Shown here: positions 5,346 through 32,723 of the stretch, one piece after another
How positions within the stretch are numbered: position 1 is the stretch's first letter
How the letters are laid out: every line of letters starts with the position of its first letter
From: a virus
Lineage: Duplodnaviria; Caudoviricetes
DNA length: 32,723 nucleotides
Reading direction: 5' to 3' (one strand)
Virus record (IMG/VR): IMGVR_UViG_3300007863_000008
Location: 1-32,723 of that record
The notes under the pieces: model-generated
What the model saw: the letters and a program-made list of their open reading frames with translations, nothing else
What the model was told of the DNA's origin: nothing
The model's database searches: none
Program-made: the position numbers and the translations under genes

Positions 5346-6773
5346 CTATACTACATTCAGTTTTAATGCATGTTCCTTTACTTCTTCTATGTTCTTAAGG
5401 TTAATAATGTTGTATTTTCTAACTAATTTATTTACATCAGCCATTAGATTAAAGCCATTTGTATCACCATGCGCACCAAACACAGCCATATCTGATACCC
5501 ATATTCTTCTAGCTGGTTGTTTACCTAACCATTCTAAAGCAGGACCATCTACAACATTACCATAACCTGAATGCTCATCTAGATATTTTTCAGTTACACG
5601 TTTACCATTCTTTGCAATGATACGTAAATCACCTGTGTCACCTTTGCCATTGTACATAGCAATAGTAACAGCAGGTAACTGCTGCATAACTTCTAAGATA
5701 TCTTGACCATTAAATGACATAGAACCTGATGCATCAATAAGTATTGTGCCTCCAAGTGCTGTTACTTTCTGTTTAAATATCTTTTTATCTATACAATATC
5801 TGTTTATATACTTAGGATTGTAACCAAAGTCAGCTGGTCTGTATGACCTACCATTCTTAAGTCTACTTTGTAAGTTAACAGTTAATGGTGGTTGATGCGT
5901 AAACATTTCACCCCATTCACCGTGACCATCAGAACTACTATATAATAATTCAGTAATATCATCTCTAGTACGTTGTTCTAAAGAACCACCACCTAACTCA
6001 TTAGATTCTTGAGCTTCACCTTCGCCTTCTCCTTCTTGTTGTGAAGATGTAGGTTTTGGTGCTGGTTTATATACTTCATCATGCTCAGGTTTGTCTCTAA
6101 ACATATCAAGTATTTTACTTAGTGGTTCTGCATACTTTTGTACTTTACGATAACTAATAGTTTGACCCCAGCTATGATTAGTAATATTATGCATGAATTT
6201 AGTAATAACTCTTTGTGCATACATAATTTGATTCTTACGAAAATCAGTAACATTAGAATCATTTCTTATCATGTCAAAACATGATGACATAACAATCCAT
6301 TCATCATTATATTTATAACTAGAATACTTACGGTTAGTATCATTATCTGGTACTCGCCATCTACTAGCTAAACCCATAAGTATTATTTCTGCAATACCTG
6401 ACTCATAAACTAATTTCATAGTTTCTTGTTGTATTACATCTAAACACTTTGAAGGTTCATATAATGCAAGCTGGTTTTCATATAAAAGATGATTAACTCT
6501 AACTTCTTCTAGTACATGAACAGCTTCTGCACGTACGCCTGGTTTTAGCTTACCCATAGTCTTAGGACTCCACTTGGCATGACCAAGTTCGTGTCTACGT
6601 ATCATACGACTATGATTAACACCACATTCCGAACACTCTCTGTCGAGTGGAACTGTCATCTGTCTGTTGAGATTGTCTGTAGAACCATCGGGACTGTTGT
6701 TAACAGTACCTACTACTTCCCATTTCTCACCAGTAACAATTTCTGGATATGGATAAGCTTTACTGTTAGGCAC
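5346..6773 (-). CDS. CobT-like protein: N-terminal HEXXH metallopeptidase-like domain plus C-terminal VWA domain
   Basis: RRHELGH followed by EEVRVN; acidic/low-complexity linker; ILIDASGSM MIDAS motif and late VSD; adjacent to an AAA+ gene. Confidence 0.85.
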   Translation of the reverse strand: MPNSKAYPYPEIVTGEKWEVVGTVNNSPDGSTDNLNRQMTVPLDRECSECGVNHSRMIRRHELGHAKWSPKTMGKLKPGVRAEAVHVLEEVRVNHLLYENQLALYEPSKCLDVIQQETMKLVYESGIAEIILMGLASRWRVPDNDTNRKYSSYKYNDEWIVMSSCFDMIRNDSNVTDFRKNQIMYAQRVITKFMHNITNHSWGQTISYRKVQKYAEPLSKILDMFRDKPEHDEVYKPAPKPTSSQQEGEGEGEAQESNELGGGSLEQRTRDDITELLYSSSDGHGEWGEMFTHQPPLTVNLQSRLKNGRSYRPADFGYNPKYINRYCIDKKIFKQKVTALGGTILIDASGSMSFNGQDILEVMQQLPAVTIAMYNGKGDTGDLRIIAKNGKRVTEKYLDEHSGYGNVVDGPALEWLGKQPARRIWVSDMAVFGAHGDTNGFNLMADVNKLVRKYNIINLKNIEEVKEHALKLNVV

Positions 6774-7491
6774 GTGCTAATGTAACAGCGTCTATCAATT
6801 CTTCTGCTTTTTCTGCAAAGATTAATTGTGCTGCTATTTCTGGAGTAAAGCCATTAGCTTGTAAGTTAAAGAACTCTGTCCATGCACGTACTGAAATACG
6901 TTCTTCATCATCCTCTACTAATGTTGTATCATTAATTACACCATGCCACTCATCTGGAAATTTTTCCATTGCTTTAGGGTGTATACTGTCAACATATATT
7001 TTTACAGGAAATCTGTCTTTCAAAGCCAATGGTAATGACTCTGGTGGACTGTTAGTTGTAGCTACGACTTGAAAGCCGTCAGCTGGTTTAACTGTCTCCT
7101 TTGTATCGTTATTTAATGTCAACATTGCTATTTCTTGGTCGTCAAGAATAGCATGTAGAAACGTCATTGCATCTGGTGATGCATGGTCTATCTCGTTAAT
7201 TACAAGACGACCACCATTTTTCCATGATTGTATTGCAATACCGTCATGCCACTCAAAAGTACCTGTGTTAGATGGCTTATAAAAACCCTCTAAGTTTGCA
7301 CTAGCAGTATCTTCTGTCATGGTTATTTGATAGATATTATCTATTTCTTTTTCTGCTGATTTACTATACGCTTTAGGCGTATTAGTTTTAACAGCACTGT
7401 ATGTCTTACCTGTACCAGGTGGGCCATAAAGTAATACTCTACGGCTATTGCCCAATACAGATTCTACTAATTCCCAGCAATCTTTTGCCAT
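6766..7491 (-). CDS. MoxR/CobS-like AAA+ ATPase
   Basis: Walker A GPPGTGKT, FEWHDG, Walker B variant LVINEID, sensor-1 ATTN, arginine finger ALKDRF, ISVR sensor-2; GAAAGGAG RBS. Confidence 0.92.
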   Translation of the reverse strand: MAKDCWELVESVLGNSRRVLLYGPPGTGKTYSAVKTNTPKAYSKSAEKEIDNIYQITMTEDTASANLEGFYKPSNTGTFEWHDGIAIQSWKNGGRLVINEIDHASPDAMTFLHAILDDQEIAMLTLNNDTKETVKPADGFQVVATTNSPPESLPLALKDRFPVKIYVDSIHPKAMEKFPDEWHGVINDTTLVEDDEERISVRAWTEFFNLQANGFTPEIAAQLIFAEKAEELIDAVTLARA

Positions 7492-7515: not shown

Positions 7516-8028
7516 TTATTCCTTAGTATCTCTAAGAAAATCTTCTATTTCGTCACTCATGTGATTTGTATGCTTAATAACAGCATTTTCTGTAAGTGTA
7601 TTAAGCTCATCTTCGTCATCGATTAAGCTAGCTTGTATAGCTGTTGGCTCTAACAATATCCAGTCTGAAAACAAACCTTTATCATCAAGAAATTCAGCAA
7701 ATTTAAGCACTGTTTCTTTATCAAATTCGTCTTCGTCAGGTAAAATACCTGGGTATCTAGTCATTGTTTCTGCTTTAACAACAGTGTCAATTTTGATAGC
7801 TCTAGCAATAGCTTGTTCTAATGAACTTGCTTCTACTTCGTATCGATTAGCTATACCATTTTCTATATCTAGTTCTTTATCATCATCTATTTTTTCAAAC
7901 ACTTGTTGTCTGAAATATGATATTTGTACTTGATACTTTTTTAATGGTTTGTTTTGAACCTTAATTAAGTGTCCATGCATAATATTCCTTTCGTTGCTCT
8001 GCCACAGAGAGTAACGGAAGGAATGCAT
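7516..8028 (-). CDS. acidic hypothetical protein with two in-frame candidate starts (8028 and 7980)
   Basis: ORF track. GGGAGG precedes ATG 8028 and GAAAGGAA precedes ATG 7980; contains YEVEASSLEQAI. Confidence 0.8.
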   Translation of the reverse strand: MHSFRYSLWQSNERNIMHGHLIKVQNKPLKKYQVQISYFRQQVFEKIDDDKELDIENGIANRYEVEASSLEQAIARAIKIDTVVKAETMTRYPGILPDEDEFDKETVLKFAEFLDDKGLFSDWILLEPTAIQASLIDDEDELNTLTENAVIKHTNHMSDEIEDFLRDTKE

Positions 8029-8251
8029 ATAACATTCCTCCCATACTCAATGCTATCTTACACAGGGCATTATGTATTTTATAGATAGCTCGTAACACAC
8101 AATTGGTAGGAATCCAACCTACAAAGCGACCATACTTTCGTATTCGCTATACGCATTTACTTTTATGTGTTACAAGCTACGTACGTGTAACAACCTAGAC
8201 GCTGGCTATAAAGGGGAACTAAATAGCCAGCTTGGACACATGGTCTAGGTT
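7985..8251 (-). ncRNA. putative structured RNA / cis-regulatory leader (~265 nt)
   Basis: 18-bp helix 8085-8102/8163-8180 (G-U pairs on the minus strand) enclosing a GAAA-loop hairpin (8126-8147) and a 5-bp/7-nt hairpin (8106-8122); nested 9+9 bp hairpin 8192-8251; further hairpins 8052-8089, 8016-8042 and 7985-8023. Confidence 0.6.
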
Positions 8252-8397
8252 TTATAAAGTTGTCTGATTCGGGCAGGAATGACAACTTTAATATTGCATT
8301 TTGCACAACAAACACCAATAGATACAGGTTCTGCATTATTGGTATATTCATTGTGTATGACTTCGTCACATAACCAACATGTAAATGAATCAGGCAT
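8245..8397 (-). CDS. Cys-rich zinc-binding microprotein, 50 aa (MPDSFTCWLCDEVIHNEYTNNAEPVSIGVCCAKCNIKVVIPARIRQLYKT)
   Basis: Hand-translated. CxxC...NNAxP...GxCCxxCN..VxPAR is a recurrent small phage protein pattern; overlaps the upstream stop. Confidence 0.8.
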   Translation of the reverse strand: MPDSFTCWLCDEVIHNEYTNNAEPVSIGVCCAKCNIKVVIPARIRQLYKT

Positions 8398-8623
8398 AAT
8401 CATCTGGTCCAATTACATCTAACATAGACTTACAATATATACTTGGTCTATGTACGGTGAACTCTATGTCACCGTCATTAGGTATAAGACGAACCATTGC
8501 ATCTATTTGTGCAACAGCGTCATCTACGTCAGTATCATATCCAAAATGAAAATCAACAGTTAAGATATTATCTTTTTGTCTATAGTCTTGATTTTCAAAT
8601 ACATATACATCATGTTCTTTCAT
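8390..8623 (-). CDS. hypothetical protein, 77 aa
   Basis: ORF track; ATGA coupling with the upstream gene. Confidence 0.75.
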   Translation of the reverse strand: MKEHDVYVFENQDYRQKDNILTVDFHFGYDTDVDDAVAQIDAMVRLIPNDGDIEFTVHRPSIYCKSMLDVIGPDDYA

Positions 8624-8790
8624 AATGTATCTGTATCGTATACGTTACTGATAACTGAATCTAAATCCATAAGCTTAGTTACAATAGCTTTATCAAGCTC
8701 GCTCATGTTTTGCATGGTGTTTTTAATACCCTCAAGTATCAAAACTATTTCAGTTAATTTTATATCAAGTTCATCTAATTTACTTGTCAT
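8620..8790 (-). CDS. small coiled-coil protein (start revised to 8790, MTSKLDELDIKL...)
   Basis: AGAAAGG RBS precedes ATG 8790; heptad-like Leu/Ile pattern. The ORF-track start at 8829 overlaps another gene. Confidence 0.7.
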   Translation of the reverse strand: MTSKLDELDIKLTEIVLILEGIKNTMQNMSELDKAIVTKLMDLDSVISNVYDTDTL

Positions 8791-8792
8791 TA

Positions 8793-8912
8793 TTACCTTT
8801 CTATATATTCTGGGTAGCATGGTTCGCAATAGTGTTTGTTATTAATTTCTCCACCACCATTATGTGTATGTGAATATCTACCACAACCTTCGCATAATAA
8901 CCAACCACCCAT
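8793..8912 (-). CDS. zinc-finger microprotein, 39 aa (MGGWLLCEGCGRYSHTHNGGGEINNKHYCEPCYPEYIER)
   Basis: Hand-translated; TAATG coupling at 8912; CxxC...YCxxC. Confidence 0.75.
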   Translation of the reverse strand: MGGWLLCEGCGRYSHTHNGGGEINNKHYCEPCYPEYIER

Positions 8913-9109
8913 TAGCTATTTTTCTTATCAACAGCTTTGCTTATTTGATAACTTACTGCTTCGTGAAGCATTGCACAATGATTGCCTATTTGTGTTTTAG
9001 CTCTATCATCATTACTCCAAGCTTGTAAGTCATTAAGTGTCCACTGAATAACTTGTCTTAACTCATCTACATCAAGTGTATTGAGTTTATTATTTAATGT
9101 AATATTCAT
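8912..9109 (-). CDS. hypothetical protein, 65 aa
   Basis: ORF track; GAAAGGAA RBS. Confidence 0.8.
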   Translation of the reverse strand: MNITLNNKLNTLDVDELRQVIQWTLNDLQAWSNDDRAKTQIGNHCAMLHEAVSYQISKAVDKKNS

Positions 9110-9126
9110 AGTTTCCTTTCACTTTA

Positions 9127-9164
9127 TATATATTACGTTCGCCCGAAAACGAACGTAATATATA
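9127..9164 (-). promoter_or_regulatory. perfect 15-bp inverted repeat; on the minus strand extended by two U-G pairs to a UUCG tetraloop
   Basis: tatatattacgttcg / cccgaaaa / cgaacgtaatatata. Confidence 0.75.
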
Positions 9165-9173
9165 AATATTTAA

Positions 9174-9509
9174 CTATTCTACAACGTTACCGTCATAATC
9201 ATCATCTAAATCATCTTTAAATGAACCTGTGTCAACAGTACTAGCCATAGCTAGTTGTTTTTCTACATTCTCTTTACCTTTAAGAGATGTAGGACTTGCA
9301 TCATGCAATTCCCACAGTTTAGATTGTGCGTCAGCAATGATACGCAGTTGCTCTGCAACTTCAGTATCAGTTTTATCAAGGTGTAAAAAGTAAGGTCTAC
9401 TTTTACCTTGAGTTGCTGAATAGCCATGAGTGACAGCCATTTGACTCCACTCAGTCAGTTGTGCGCCTGTTTGCGCACAGATTACCTCGTAAGGTACGTT
9501 ACTTGCCAT
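9174..9509 (-). CDS. hypothetical protein, 111 aa, acidic C-terminus; probable distant paralogue of 10528-10833
   Basis: ORF track; AGAAAGGA RBS; shares LHxD...LxELHxxSxT with the 10833 gene product. Confidence 0.8.
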   Translation of the reverse strand: MASNVPYEVICAQTGAQLTEWSQMAVTHGYSATQGKSRPYFLHLDKTDTEVAEQLRIIADAQSKLWELHDASPTSLKGKENVEKQLAMASTVDTGSFKDDLDDDYDGNVVE

Positions 9510-9515
9510 AATATA

Positions 9516-9624
9516 TATCCTTTCTATTATGTATCATCTATGTCTTTCATAGATAAATTTTTCTTTCACACCACGCTCTGAAAGAAAATATTTAGCTAAA
9601 GACATAGTTATACAAGAAAGGATA
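9516..9624 (-). promoter_or_regulatory. long RBS-sequestering leader hairpin
   Basis: Three 10-bp helices: 9516-9525/9615-9624 (contains the RBS), 9538-9547/9598-9607 and 9559-9568/9579-9588. Confidence 0.75.
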
Positions 9625-9628
9625 GTTA

Positions 9629-9847
9629 TCAAGTAGTACCTACTAGAGTTCGTGAACCCCATGTATCAGAATCAAATGGTTCGTTATGGTATTCATCTAT
9701 TAGATTTTTAAATACTACCCATGCATATGTTAATTCCATATTAATTCTATAGTCTAAGCATTCTGCACTACAGTAATACCAGTTATTATGTCTAATAACT
9801 TTATTTTTATTTACATTATCATTAAAACATTCTGAACATTTAATCAT
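9629..9847 (-). CDS. CxxC...YCSxxC (TRASH/treble-clef-like) zinc-binding protein, 72 aa
   Basis: CSEC...YYCSAEC; GGAGG RBS; ATGA coupling. Confidence 0.75.
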   Translation of the reverse strand: MIKCSECFNDNVNKNKVIRHNNWYYCSAECLDYRINMELTYAWVVFKNLIDEYHNEPFDSDTWGSRTLVGTT

Positions 9848-10137
9848 ATTAATCTTCCTCCTGCATAACTACCTGTATGCCATTCTGGGCCATTAGCCCA
9901 GATGTATTGGTTATACTCATACATGGTGATTGGTTTATAACAATTACATAATCTTTCAGGACTTTCTGAATACATAAACTCTATATCAGCACTTGCTTCG
10001 TGCAAGGCTGATAAACCTATGTATTTAGCGTCCTGACTCATGTAATTGTCATTACTAGGTATCATAGGGTAACCGTCAATATCCTGGACTGAATACATTC
10101 CAGTCCAGTCAATTGGTTTACCAATTACATCAGTCAT
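9844..10137 (-). CDS. hypothetical protein, 97 aa
   Basis: ORF track; ATGA overlaps at both ends. Confidence 0.75.
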   Translation of the reverse strand: MTDVIGKPIDWTGMYSVQDIDGYPMIPSNDNYMSQDAKYIGLSALHEASADIEFMYSESPERLCNCYKPITMYEYNQYIWANGPEWHTGSYAGGRLI

Positions 10138-10325
10138 TTTTCTAACACATCCTTAACAGCTCTGTTAAGAGTTGTACCAAATGCACTTATTTTATATAAT
10201 TTATAATTATCAAGTACTTTTTGTACATGTTCATTATATTCATCTGGTGTTAGATGTGGTTTGACAATTAGACACGCGTCATATAGACGCGTTATTTCGT
10301 CAAACAATTGTTTTTGTGTAGCCAT
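10134..10325 (-). CDS. hypothetical protein, 63 aa
   Basis: ORF track; GAAAGGAG RBS. Confidence 0.8.
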   Translation of the reverse strand: MATQKQLFDEITRLYDACLIVKPHLTPDEYNEHVQKVLDNYKLYKISAFGTTLNRAVKDVLEK

Positions 10326-10410
10326 AATTAGCTCCTTTCAATTTTCTTTTAGATATTTCATGTGGACAAGTACAACTAATTAAATGATAATTGTTTGTAC
10401 AATAACTCAT
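10300..10410 (-). CDS. Cys/His-rich microprotein, 36 aa (MSYCTNNYHLISCTCPHEISKRKLKG...)
   Basis: Hand-translated; AAGGAG RBS; TAATG coupling. Confidence 0.55.
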   Translation of the reverse strand: MSYCTNNYHLISCTCPHEISKRKLKGANYGYTKTIV

Positions 10411-10499
10411 TATTTACACTCCTTAAGATATAAACCTGCGCGTGCAAATTTATATCTAATTCGTGTAATTTGGTACTTATGTATTATATATTTAATCAT
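10410..10499 (-). CDS. basic microprotein, 29 aa (MIKYIIHKYQITRIRYKFARAGLYLKECK)
   Basis: Hand-translated; GAAAGGAA RBS at 10503-10510; stop overlaps the next ATG. Confidence 0.55.
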   Translation of the reverse strand: MIKYIIHKYQITRIRYKFARAGLYLKECK

Positions 10500-10527
10500 A
10501 TATTCCTTTCTTGAAGGTAAGTGAAGC

Positions 10528-10833
10528 TTATGCTTCACTACCTTCAAATAATGATAATTGCTTAATATTATCAATTTGTTTTTGTAATTTAGGCAACTCT
10601 TTTAATTTACGTGCAATATAGGTTTTAGATTCCTTATGCAGTTCAATTAAGTTCGGCTTGCCTCCAGCTGTCGGTTGTGCAACACAGTCGCCGTGTAGGT
10701 ACGACTTCCATGTTACCCAGCCCTTCTGTGGTCCGAAGTAGCTTTTTATAGGGTGTCTTTCGTCTGGAAATACTTCGTTATGACATATGCCACAATCGAT
10801 AGTATTTACCCATTTAGTATATTCAGTATCCAT
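10528..10833 (-). CDS. first gene of the leftward arm: Zn-binding (CxxC...HxxC) protein with C-terminal QLSLF motif, 101 aa (start revised to 10833)
   Basis: GAAAGGA RBS precedes ATG 10833 (MDTEYTKW...); CGIC...LHGDC; KQLSLF near the C-terminus. The upstream extension in the ORF track coincides with a hairpin. Confidence 0.8.
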   Translation of the reverse strand: MDTEYTKWVNTIDCGICHNEVFPDERHPIKSYFGPQKGWVTWKSYLHGDCVAQPTAGGKPNLIELHKESKTYIARKLKELPKLQKQIDNIKQLSLFEGSEA

Positions 10834-10923
10834 ATTTTCTTGTCCTTTCGTATGAATTTTCTGTCTTTCACACCTGCCAAGACAGATAAATTTTAGTACG
10901 AAAGGACTTAGAAAATAGGATAC
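10826..10923 (-). promoter_or_regulatory. long leader hairpin sequestering the RBS and start codon
   Basis: Helices 10842-10852/10897-10907 (11 bp, RBS), 10833-10840/10910-10917, 10826-10831/10918-10923 and 10861-10867/10879-10885. Confidence 0.75.
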
Positions 10924-11009
10924 GAGAATATCTATGGGTAATACTAGATTGGCATTGACATACAAGTATGACAGACCAAGACGCACTCGAAAGCCTCGGC
11001 GACAAAGGT

Positions 11010-11078
11010 CTGTAACATTAAGTTATCCTCACTGTACTGTTAGCACAATACAGTAGAGGCAAGTAACTTAATGTACAG
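11010..11078. repeat. long imperfect inverted repeat
   Basis: acattaagtta 11015-11025 / taacttaatgt 11064-11074, cctc/gagg, actgta/tacagt. Confidence 0.75.
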
Positions 11079-11110
11079 CTGGAATGTAACTCATTGTACG
11101 GATAACACTG

Positions 11111-11323
11111 TAGTTATATATAGTATCCATATCAGTACAGAGTCATATCAATACACTACATATGGTATTAAATCAATAGAGGATACTATATATAGTAGTC
11201 ACTTTACCGTAAGGTAAAGACACTCAGTACATACATACAATATATAGTATGACTACTGTAGGACTTTAGTACTGAGTGTTGTTTGACTACCCAGTGTTAA
11301 CCTTGACGTTGCTTATATAGTAT
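11111..11323. promoter_or_regulatory. array of five 16-bp quasi-palindromic boxes (ATACTATATATAGTAT-like; NrdR-box-like)
   Basis: Copies start at 11111, 11153, 11183, 11235 and 11308; a further copy lies at 3761-3776. Confidence 0.55.
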
Positions 11324-11539
11324 GTAAGGCTAAAAATATATGCTGGTAATTTCTGTAATACTGTAGGTGGCTACAGTCTTTTTAGGCACTAGCGGGCATT
11401 AGTAATTGTGTGCCTAATCAAACGCTTTCTAATGTCCTTGGGTACTGCTTTTGTCTTTCTAGTGTACTGTCTTGCCAGTCAGCAGCTTTCTACATCCCGA
11501 TTGCACCTTCACCTGTAACAAATTACTTGTGTTTGATGT

Positions 11540-30904: not shown

Positions 30905-32723
30905 TGGTAGCAAGAGAAACACAGTTACAAAACGCATACGAAACAACATTAATATCTGCATTGTCTGCAAGCTCGTCAGACCAAACAGTCTCGGTTGCAG
31001 CTTCCCCAGCAAGTATTGGTGATTTTTCATCAGGAACATCAGGATTTTATTTAGTAATTGACCCAGATAGCGACTCTACTAGAGAGTATGTTTACGTATC
31101 AGCAAAATCTGGTGTTAACTTAACAACTACTAGAAACATAGATACTTACGGTGGTGGATTAAATGCTCATTCTATTGGAGCTAAAGTTAGATTTGTTGCT
31201 ATGGCAGAAATGTTTGATGATGTACATGACAGAGTAGATACAATAATTAACGAAGCTGGTACAGCAGTTAATACAACATTATTTTTAGATGAAGATAACA
31301 TGGCATCAAACTCTGCAACTAAAGGTGTTACACAGCAATCAGTTAAAGCTTATGTAGATAGTAACGTAACTGCACAAGATTTAGATATAACAGATGGTTC
31401 TACTACAAGTGCTGTTGACTTAGATAGTCAAGCATTAACTATACAAGGTACAGCTAATGAAGCAACTGTAGGATTAACAGGACAAGCATTTACAGTTGGA
31501 CTACCAAGTTCTATCACAGTTAACGTAACAGGTAACTTAACAGGTAATGTGACAGGAAATGTTACAGGTAACTTAACTGGAGATGTTACAGGAGACGTTA
31601 CAGGTGATTTAACAGGTAATGTAACTGGTAACGTTACTGGTAATGTTACAGGTGCAGTTACAGGAAACGTAACTGGAAACCTAACAGGTAATGTAACTGG
31701 TGATGTTACTGGAGATGTAACTGGAAATTTAACTGGAAACGTAACAGGCAATGTATCTGGTACAGCTTCAGGATTATCAGCAACATTATCAGTTGCTACA
31801 GGTGGTACAGGACAAACATCTTACACAGATGGTCAATTACTTATAGGTAAAACTACAGGTAATACACTATCTAAAGCTACATTAACTGCAGGAACTAATG
31901 TAACTATAACTAATGGTTCGGGTGCTATTACAATTGCAGCTACAGATACCAACACAGAATACACAGCTGGTGATGGTTTAGATTTAACTGGTACAACATT
32001 TAGTACTGACCTTAAATCAAATGGTGGACTTGTAATAGAATCTACAGAATTAGCCGTAGATTTAGCAGCTAGTTCAATAACAGGAACACTTGATGAAACA
32101 GACGGTGGTACTGGACTTACAAGTTATACTACTGGAGATATTCTTTATGCTTCTGGTAGCAATACACTTGCAAAATTAGGTATAGGTTCATCAGGGCAGA
32201 CTTTACAAGTATCATCTGGTGGTATTGTAGAATGGGCAACAGCAACAACTGGAGATATAACAGGTGTTACTGCTGGTACAGCTTTAGATGGCGGAGGAGT
32301 AACTGGTACAGTAACATTAAATGTTGATGTAAATGCAGCTAGTGTTGTTACAGCTACTACATCAGATTATATTCTTATAGAAGATGTAACAGACAACAGT
32401 ACAAAAAAAGCTTTAATATCAGATATAGTTTCTGCAGGAGATATAACAGAAGTAAATACAGCAGCTAACTCTGGTTTAGCTGGAGGTGCAACATCTGGAG
32501 CAGTATCGTTAACTGTAGACCCATCTAACTTAGCTGATGGTACAGGTATAACAGCAGATACAGCAAATGACTTCTTAATTATGGAAGATGTTACAGATGG
32601 AACTGTATATAAAATAAATCCTAATCAAATAGCATCAGGTTCAGCATCTGCATTATCAGATGGAGATTCAGACTTTACACTTACAGATGGTATTGCTAAT
32701 GGAATACACTACGAGTTAGACAA
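30904..32723 (+). CDS. tail fibre protein, 3'-truncated by the window edge (MVARETQLQNAYETTL...)
   Basis: Hand-translated; open from ATG 30904 to the end and absent from the ORF track because it has no stop. G/T/S/A-rich; LDEDNMASNSATK..TQQSVKAYVD, GGTG.TSYT.G and GDIT.V..G..L.GG fibre modules. Confidence 0.88.
   Translation, partial: MVARETQLQNAYETTLISALSASSSDQTVSVAASPASIGDFSSGTSGFYLVIDPDSDSTREYVYVSAKSGVNLTTTRNIDTYGGGLNAHSIGAKVRFVAMAEMFDDVHDRVDTIINEAGTAVNTTLFLDEDNMASNSATKGVTQQSVKAYVDSNVTAQDLDITDGSTTSAVDLDSQALTIQGTANEATVGLTGQAFTVGLPSSITVNVTGNLTGNVTGNVTGNLTGDVTGDVTGDLTGNVTGNVTGNVTGAVTGNVTGNLTGNVTGDVTGDVTGNLTGNVTGNVSGTASGLSATLSVATGGTGQTSYTDGQLLIGKTTGNTLSKATLTAGTNVTITNGSGAITIAATDTNTEYTAGDGLDLTGTTFSTDLKSNGGLVIESTELAVDLAASSITGTLDETDGGTGLTSYTTGDILYASGSNTLAKLGIGSSGQTLQVSSGGIVEWATATTGDITGVTAGTALDGGGVTGTVTLNVDVNAASVVTATTSDYILIEDVTDNSTKKALISDIVSAGDITEVNTAANSGLAGGATSGAVSLTVDPSNLADGTGITADTANDFLIMEDVTDGTVYKINPNQIASGSASALSDGDSDFTLTDGIANGIHYELD
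31522..31761 (+). repeat. 20 x 12-nt coding tandem repeat encoding [N/D/A][V/L]TG
   Basis: NVTG NLTG NVTG NVTG NLTG DVTG DVTG DLTG ... NVSG, with synonymous variation between units. Confidence 0.92.

Follow-up and report, generated by a model that had tools for sequence, protein, structure and literature searches.

Long antisense-armed hairpins predicted to lock two paralogous early genes of a marine podovirus

The window analysed here, 32,723 nucleotides of a tailed-phage genome (virus record IMGVR_UViG_3300007863_000008, positions 1 to 32,723; estimated to be 77% complete), carries two small minus-strand genes, A and B, each preceded by a long RNA hairpin, or rod, that buries its ribosome-binding site. 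Leaders of this general kind are known. What is unusual here is the length of the lock, the way in which it tracks the sequence of its gene, the distribution of its bulges and the fact that it guards a likely clamp binder. The 5' arm of rod A amounts to a bulged antisense copy of at least a quarter of its own gene and appears to follow it even as the protein falls below 40% identity. Across a large uncultured family of marine podoviruses, a conserved early protein that likely binds the clamp apparently must be held back.

Leader hairpins over genes A and B

On the minus strand, positions 10826–10923 upstream of gene A fold at −41.6 kcal/mol (z −9.5) and positions 9516–9624 upstream of gene B at −38.7 kcal/mol (z −8.1), with 0 of 200 shuffles as good in either case. 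A first-pass annotation made from the sequence alone had described both leaders as long rods whose basal helices, of 11 and 10 bp, bury a GAAAGGA ribosome-binding site, and this description holds: on long RNAs the Shine–Dalgarno (SD) sequence of either gene is unpaired with a probability of 0.001, compared with 0.88–0.97 if the RNA begins at or below the apex. Across the 13 minus-strand genes with an SD-like motif, only A and B are fully shut (0.0 free); one other stands at 0.09 and the rest at 0.46–0.93. A thermometer function was rejected, as the SD remains unpaired at no more than 0.02 even at 70 °C. The Rfam collection gave 0 matches in the window and two chance miRNA-type matches, below the gathering score, in five relatives, and no complement to either arm that might serve as an activator or antitoxin RNA was found elsewhere in the 77%-complete window.

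In rod A, the anti-SD at 10897–10907 pairs with 10842–10852 (SD at 10849–10843). The fold had been under-called in extent: its firm part runs over 10756–10981, pairing 10981 with 10756 (10740–11040 folds at z −8.6), and buries the SD and start codon together with the first 26 codons or more of gene A. Beyond this a weaker outer extension reaches about 11012:10716 (10716–11012); this outer duplex is equalled by 12 of 500 shuffles and its outermost part has an alternative fold. A 24-codon frame (11018–10944, minus strand) follows the outer part of the antisense arm, its SD lying within a hairpin at 11010–11078. This frame was rejected as a key for A, as the A SD stays at 0.001 and the frame is broken or lacks an SD in several relatives. 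An in-frame, 152-residue GTG extension of A was likewise discarded, being disrupted in relatives. A further hairpin (10511–10547) lies over the stop codon of gene A.

Rod B (9516–9624) pairs its anti-SD, 9615–9624, with 9516–9525 (SD at 9524–9518) around a loop at 9569–9578. Its lock is shorter than that of A, and conditional. The stop codon of the upstream gene (9629–9631) lies 5 nt from the anti-SD core, and a ribosome terminating there would overlap the rod at its base; this spacing is 1–9 nt in 12 of 13 alleles, and when the 12 nt past the stop are hidden in folding the B SD becomes free (at least 0.78) in 13 of 14. Two of the 14 alleles (L002 and L029), in which A directly abuts B, are predicted to be open by default, the hairpin at the A stop capturing the anti-SD of B. 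In the same two phages, B is predicted to be partly shut while a ribosome occupies the A stop. A sigma70-like site matching at 10 of 12 positions lies on the plus strand at 9503–9530, pointing into rod B; its transcript would take in the apex and anti-SD and leave out the SD, and the site is likely a by-product of the B start codons. The hairpin that follows gene B (9127–9164) is of the unlocked type common in the family and leaves the next SD free.

Comparison of relatives indicates selection on the A lock. Among 14 close alleles of rod A, 97% of cells in the alignment pair, and in the covariation check of homologous leaders that the first-pass annotation had proposed, 13 of 73 pairs changed on both sides (0 of 500 shuffles), although some of these changes (part of helix 7) come from the misaligned L029 and L038 and relatedness inflates the test. 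Two more distant phages, L105 and L085, have A proteins that are 36% and 39% identical and leaders that are 61–63% identical. Below the SD their rods extend for 99 and 86 bp, with different apices and a different sequence. The antisense arm finds its best partner in its own gene in 7 of 8 locked genomes, and no own-gene fit is seen in two unlocked phages; the arms of L105 and L085 reach −89 with their own gene against −36 to −54 with other locked genes. The bulges are also unevenly placed. Over nine related rods, 83 one-sided bulges fall on the mRNA arm and 8 on the antisense arm, and in 8 of the 9 the longest helix is 8–9 bp. The antisense arm co-evolves with gene A.

The locks are confined to part of the family. 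From the best 80 of 597 terminase-anchored loci, combined with earlier loci, we drew 32 representatives resembling A and 32 resembling B. Of 29 scored A leaders, 7 have long rods, and one further leader has a short stem (0.27); three rows lacked an SD call, among them L085, which does carry the rod. Long B rods occur in 6 of 32 leaders, all within the clade of the window, and in two others a short local stem covers the SD. Most clades instead carry a short, bulged hairpin 35–90 nt before A and B that leaves the SD free, with hairpins of this kind before other early genes too, and in several of them this hairpin (a stem, a U/C bulge, GAC, a loop and GUC) is present in 3–5 copies per early region. 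In a 31-row terminase tree the phages with a locked A form one clade (100/100), and those in which both A and B are locked form a second clade nested inside it (98/96). The locks are thus younger than the duplication that gave rise to A and B, since they are restricted to these clades whereas A and B are core genes of the family whose SD is mostly free. The same distribution argues against the earlier proposal of a duplicated cassette of lock plus effector. Read from these sequences, the locks grew late out of a hairpin that precedes genes throughout the family and elsewhere keeps the SD exposed, and the tree, on which they appear stepwise atop the unlocked ancestral hairpin, offers a direct view of evolving control.

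The two rods of the window also carry the same apical 11-mer, GGTGTGAAAGA, at 10864–10874 (rod A) and 9562–9572 (rod B), which are its only exact copies in the window; at one mismatch or fewer there are three matches against 0.58 expected. The sharing within the window is therefore as first described, but the motif is not a conserved apex. It is exact in one of nine distinct rod-A apices and one of three rod-B apices, the other rod-A apices matching at 8–9 of 11 positions and the other rod-B apices at 9 and 10 of 11, and neither L105 nor L085 has it in its rods. Conservation of the 11-mer in homologous leaders had been set beforehand as the test on which the original idea could fall, and for rod A that conservation is lacking. 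What does persist is a likeness between the A and B apices of one genome. Across 19 clade representatives the A/B apex score is 7.6 within genomes and 5.4 between them (0 of 20000 permutations as high), an excess of 2.4 that compares with 0.19 ± 0.39 for random hairpins; for several genomes the wrong hairpin was picked and kept in. The apex thus appears as a real but degenerate, clade-specific signature common to the hairpins of one genome, which may reflect either a phage-encoded reader or the homogenisation of repeats.

Proteins A and B

Gene A (10528–10833, minus strand) encodes a protein of 101 residues with a CxxC...HxxC zinc finger (C14, C17, H47 and C50), its ligands unchanged in 30 of 30 aligned homologues, and ends in QLSLF (residues 92–96; 10546–10560). 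This pentapeptide matches the clamp-binding consensus QL[SD]LF (given in the portion of PMC12867686 consulted) and is the sole match to it across the six frames of the window. A looser form, Q-x2-4-[LAMI]F within the final 16 residues, is found in 21 of 30 A homologues and 0 of 31 B homologues, against a background of 37 of 906 open reading frames that includes the A members themselves. A complex model of A residues 66–101 with a Streptomyces stand-in clamp gave an ipSAE of 0.62, compared with 0.00 for the best control; the mark applied to such models was reached by 116 of 157 solved pairs and 2 of 215 mismatched pairs. The runs have at least 87% of contacts in common, with partner pLDDT of at least 53, and place the interface at residues 89–96, although the clamp is a stand-in and the score may reflect likeness to solved clamp–peptide complexes. 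Motif and model together make it likely that the gene A protein binds the beta-clamp (DnaN) of the host. Small phage clamp binders of the MuC type similarly carry a QL[SD]LF-type motif, and overexpression of MuC is lethal via the clamp (PMC12867686, in part); A differs from MuC in belonging to no Pfam or PHROG family.

Gene B (9174–9509, minus strand; 111 residues) is paralogous to A; its zinc site has degenerated, and it carries a helical insertion and ends in an acidic tail (31% Asp/Glu over the last 20 residues). By alignment, its zinc ligands are mostly lost and the clamp-type tail is absent. The relationship had been suspected from the two proteins alone and emerges clearly from deep profiles, which match at 96% (E 4.8e-9) with a bridging protein removed, while a reversed and eight shuffled control profiles reached at most 1.06%. 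It is not visible with close homologues only (no BLASTP match; hhalign 0.55%). Of the shared protein motif proposed at the outset, the N-terminal cysteine does not hold, being Asp or displaced in some B homologues, nor does KQ, which is not family-wide. The bridging protein, present in L125 (4208–4465, minus strand) and L126, is a complete CxxC..HxxC protein that matches the B profile at E 7.6e-12. In three relatives a short gene between A and B (L001:5679–5885, L005:5048–5254 and L009:5715–5885) gives a match to the B C-terminal half at E 5e-7 to 8e-6 and is possibly a third, truncated paralogue.

Neither protein could be assigned to a Pfam or PHROG family, and profile searches of the PDB returned nothing below E 0.07. 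In the ESM Atlas, A fell only in unnamed clusters at 0.90 and B gave nothing usable. A structure model of B built from a 13-sequence alignment (pLDDT 68) had no Foldseek match, and its best VIA hit (Z 4.9) consisted of plain helices, from which neither novelty nor absence follows. In sister clades, the gene after B (L059:4454–4669, L040:2203–2418 and L047:1402–1614) has an acidic tail ending in DIPF or DSPF, which we take to resemble the C-terminal tip of bacterial SSB. This suggests a second early protein that docks on the replisome.

Possible routes to opening the locks

Of the three routes of release raised by the first-pass annotation (an activator, cleavage or autoregulatory binding), cleavage fits best. 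We tentatively favour, at a little less than an even chance, a cut by a host RNase III-type nuclease in the upper hairpin followed by loss of the upstream arm. A full-length early RNA of this marine podovirus is predicted to be untranslatable for A and B, and an RNA that begins in the 3' arm is predicted to have its SD free. The upper rod would be the site of cutting, and the mRNA-side bulges that recur every 8–9 bp in the lower lock would spare the coding part and leave it unwindable, with the severed upstream piece then degraded or displaced. Slow removal of the arm would delay and limit a clamp-binding protein likely to cause harm if produced immediately. For B, a ribosome finishing translation of the upstream gene would open the lock as well. 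Sequence comparison shows that the 5' flank of the hairpin has, in this lineage, expanded into an antisense of the A SD and first 26–40 codons and later, in the nested clade, into the anti-SD of B.

The helix lists resemble those of leaders opened by RNase III, with a long stem bearing small bulges above the SD. RNase III, the enzyme known to act on stems of this type, opens the E. coli adhE and lambda cIII leaders and processes the early RNAs of T7 and T3 (PMC5371410, in part). A gene for RNase III is present in G004, the Actinomycetota-labelled bin that carries terminase relatives, whose standing as host rests on binning; a 16S tail was not found in it. RNA libraries are consistent with a shortened B message. 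In the 8 runs analysed, of the 17 that contain part of the stretch (six studies) and in every case as contigs, the contig with the B start ends at 9556, 9552, 9552, 9546, 9543, 9586, 9606 and 9522. All eight stop short of the anti-SD (9615–9624), and five of them, from four studies, end at 9543–9556, a zone that hints weakly at a processed 5' end. In two runs, contigs of another A allele extend past the likely ATG by about 25 and 16 nt on its upstream side, as judged from the lengths of their loose ends. Gaps in the RNA libraries over the variable cassette and the upstream DNA were given no weight.

Promoters of host type are scarce in the leaders of the family representatives. TATAAT occurs once in the A leaders (9.7 expected) and seven times in the B leaders (14.9 expected), sigma70-like sites matching at 10 or more of 12 positions occur in 0 of 32 and 1 of 32 leaders (2.3 and 3.3 expected), and no sigma70-type site matching at 9 or more of 12 positions is placed so that its RNA would begin within either rod ahead of the SD. 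Promoter-like sites on the plus strand are not above chance either (26 against 22 ± 4.7 overall). This scarcity, with no host-type promoter suitably positioned to give the 3'-arm RNAs, favours cutting over a host promoter.

Several observations weigh against cleavage. The chief difficulty is that after a cut the two pieces would still bind each other at −21 kcal/mol (B) and −50 kcal/mol (A), so that a second step, in which the arm is degraded or displaced, is needed; the locks thus pose the question of how a duplex of 50 kcal/mol comes apart once cut. A host nuclease has no need of a clade-specific apex common to the hairpins of one genome. Three of the B contigs end away from the cluster (9522, 9586 and 9606), the clustering was noticed post hoc (P 0.026 or 0.002, depending on the range), and the failure of any B contig to reach the anti-SD has P 0.35 or 0.04, again by range. 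Contigs give neither strand nor true ends, and reverse-transcription bias at hairpins could mimic the clustering; one A contig has its end within the gene, at 10808, and two runs span rod A whole. G-U pairs are nearly absent from the rods (1 of 92 and 0 of 61 pairs), which are almost purely Watson–Crick and fold equally well on both strands. Their strand asymmetry (43 versus 27, P 0.07) is not diagnostic, and a G-U strand test was set aside as non-discriminating, control genes being equally biased (49 of 64 versus 48 of 60).

A different account places a phage-specific promoter in or near the apex, of which the apex would itself be a part, making a short RNA without the antisense arm as in the timing of T4 gene e. 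Such a promoter would dispense with the removal of a paired upstream piece and would explain both an RNA starting in the 3' arm and an apex common to one genome; there are precedents in T4 e, soc, 49 and I-TevI (PMC3014915, in part), and the window encodes a winged-helix protein at 2024–2290. The shortage of sigma70-type sites just described speaks against it, as do an A apex that differs among close strains, a loop-to-start distance that varies from about 35 to 90 nt and the lack of WhiB in three related genomes, and we regard it as rather unlikely. The locks might have no dedicated key, rod B serving to couple translation to whichever gene is upstream, rod A acting as a fixed damper on a toxic clamp binder, and cleavage belonging to decay. 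The close upstream stops of B and the freeing of its SD when the bases past the stop are hidden suit such coupling, as does the minority of alleles in which B is unlocked by default. On the other side, close stops are expected anyway in compact genomes, the B RNA mostly lacks the upstream part, and for A the sole upstream frame (11018–10944) leaves the SD shut and is not conserved. We think this explanation unlikely.

The model of the first-pass annotation can be broadened to a phage protein, possibly A or B, that would govern opening or cutting by binding at the bulged apex, with reader and apex co-evolving clade by clade. An apex motif common within genomes and different between clades is what such a reader would leave, and sister clades carry their 3–5 copies per early region each with a U/C bulge followed by GA/UC pairs, an arrangement that we take to resemble the arginine pocket of TAR. 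A and B, as small zinc-finger-type proteins, would be candidate readers. Yet the exact 11-mer is not conserved, binding at an apex 35–60 nt away could hardly melt 70–110 bp, duplication or recombination of repeats could also homogenise the apices, and no RNA-binding fold was found for B, which together leave this reading quite improbable. A more ambitious version, a phage RNA regulon in which a clade-specific apex hairpin before each early gene is read by a phage protein (A and B being candidates) and an antisense arm that tracks its gene over as much as 110 bp forms a protein-keyed switch timing a clamp-hijacking factor in an abundant marine podovirus family, we also hold to be unlikely. Least probable of all, the rods might act as DNA (as cruciforms, as single-strand hairpins near the genome end or as promoters of a virion polymerase) or be neutral palindromes left by template switching. 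Their almost pure Watson–Crick pairing, equal on both strands, and the structured character of the whole of 7900–11350 would fit. The arms nevertheless follow the SD and codons gene by gene, template switching would erase the mRNA-side bulges that the rods keep, and no polymerase signature was seen in the 2022-residue virion protein or in those portions of two related genomes that were scanned.

Known systems, relatives and neighbouring features

By analogy, the locks would work in the manner of RNase III-opened leaders and of the inhibitory leaders of T4, with membership in either class unproven. In adhE and lambda cIII the SD is likewise buried until RNase III acts (PMC5371410, in part), whereas the rods described here also pair 26–40 codons, run for 90–110 bp below the SD and would remain paired after a single cut, cleavage itself being predicted. 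In the T4 e, soc, 49 and I-TevI leaders a hairpin buries the SD or AUG of a harmful gene on a long RNA and a shorter RNA is translated (PMC3014915, in part); here there is no internal promoter of host type, the rod runs deep into the coding sequence and the gene is early rather than late. Intergenic hairpins are also a feature of early RNAs in T7, T3 and SP82, the last merely cited in the section of PMC4838370 consulted. Repeated stem-loops before swappable genes recall the PeSL cassettes of T4-like phages (PMC2839356 and PMC4122927, in part), but PeSLs are described there as promoter-terminators and not SD locks; no sigma70 promoter accompanies the hairpins studied here, and a T-run follows the hairpin motif in 3 of 31 copies.

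Type I toxin mRNAs such as those of AapA and ZorO, in the partial accounts consulted, share the sequestration of the SD of a harmful product and its relief by processing. A type I toxin–antitoxin system fits poorly nonetheless, as the products are soluble, polar zinc-finger-type proteins of 101 and 111 residues. Type I toxins are short, hydrophobic membrane peptides. No antitoxin RNA was identified in the window. No description of the lock was found in the literature searched, a search whose coverage left out most subscription papers.

The plus strand of the window encodes the terminase and SU10-type capsid proteins, while its minus strand carries the early and replication genes. The best annotated terminase matches are Streptomyces podoviruses at 26% identity, and blastn of the region against annotated phages gave no match; about 830 stored stretches match the terminase patterns of this podovirus family. 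Six loci in genome bins carry terminase relatives, three of them in one Actinomycetota-labelled bin (51–78% identity) and one each in bins labelled Gammaproteobacteria, Flavobacteriaceae and Dehalococcoidia. From this binning, the host would be a marine actinobacterium, and the RNA datasets with a stated habitat all come from marine or seawater metagenomes. Phages of Actinomarinales have been described (PMC7771536, in part). One candidate relative, L012, was dismissed as a chance hit. Loci L071 and L073 are two related terminase genes about 40 kb apart on one 54-kb contig in the Actinomycetota-labelled bin.

Between A and B lies a variable gene cassette (9626–10499) that is missing or replaced in relatives. 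The early region as a whole (7900–11350) is unusually foldable on both strands, with a long stem inside the open reading frame at 9844–10137. At 8085–8185 (minus strand), a multi-branch fold of about 100 nt, without a match in Rfam, has a near-identical copy at another position in a distant clade, upstream of gene A in L094; folds with similar closing stems occur in L011 and L104. One hairpin within it looks to us like a T-arm. Elsewhere in the window are genes for a SET-domain protein (44–361) and an SLT transglycosylase-like protein (1590–2024), and an AAA+ ATPase gene adjoining a 475-residue gene (5346–7491), which is presumably its vWA partner. A 12-nt tandem repeat of about 25 units lies at 31469–31774, within a likely tail-fibre gene.

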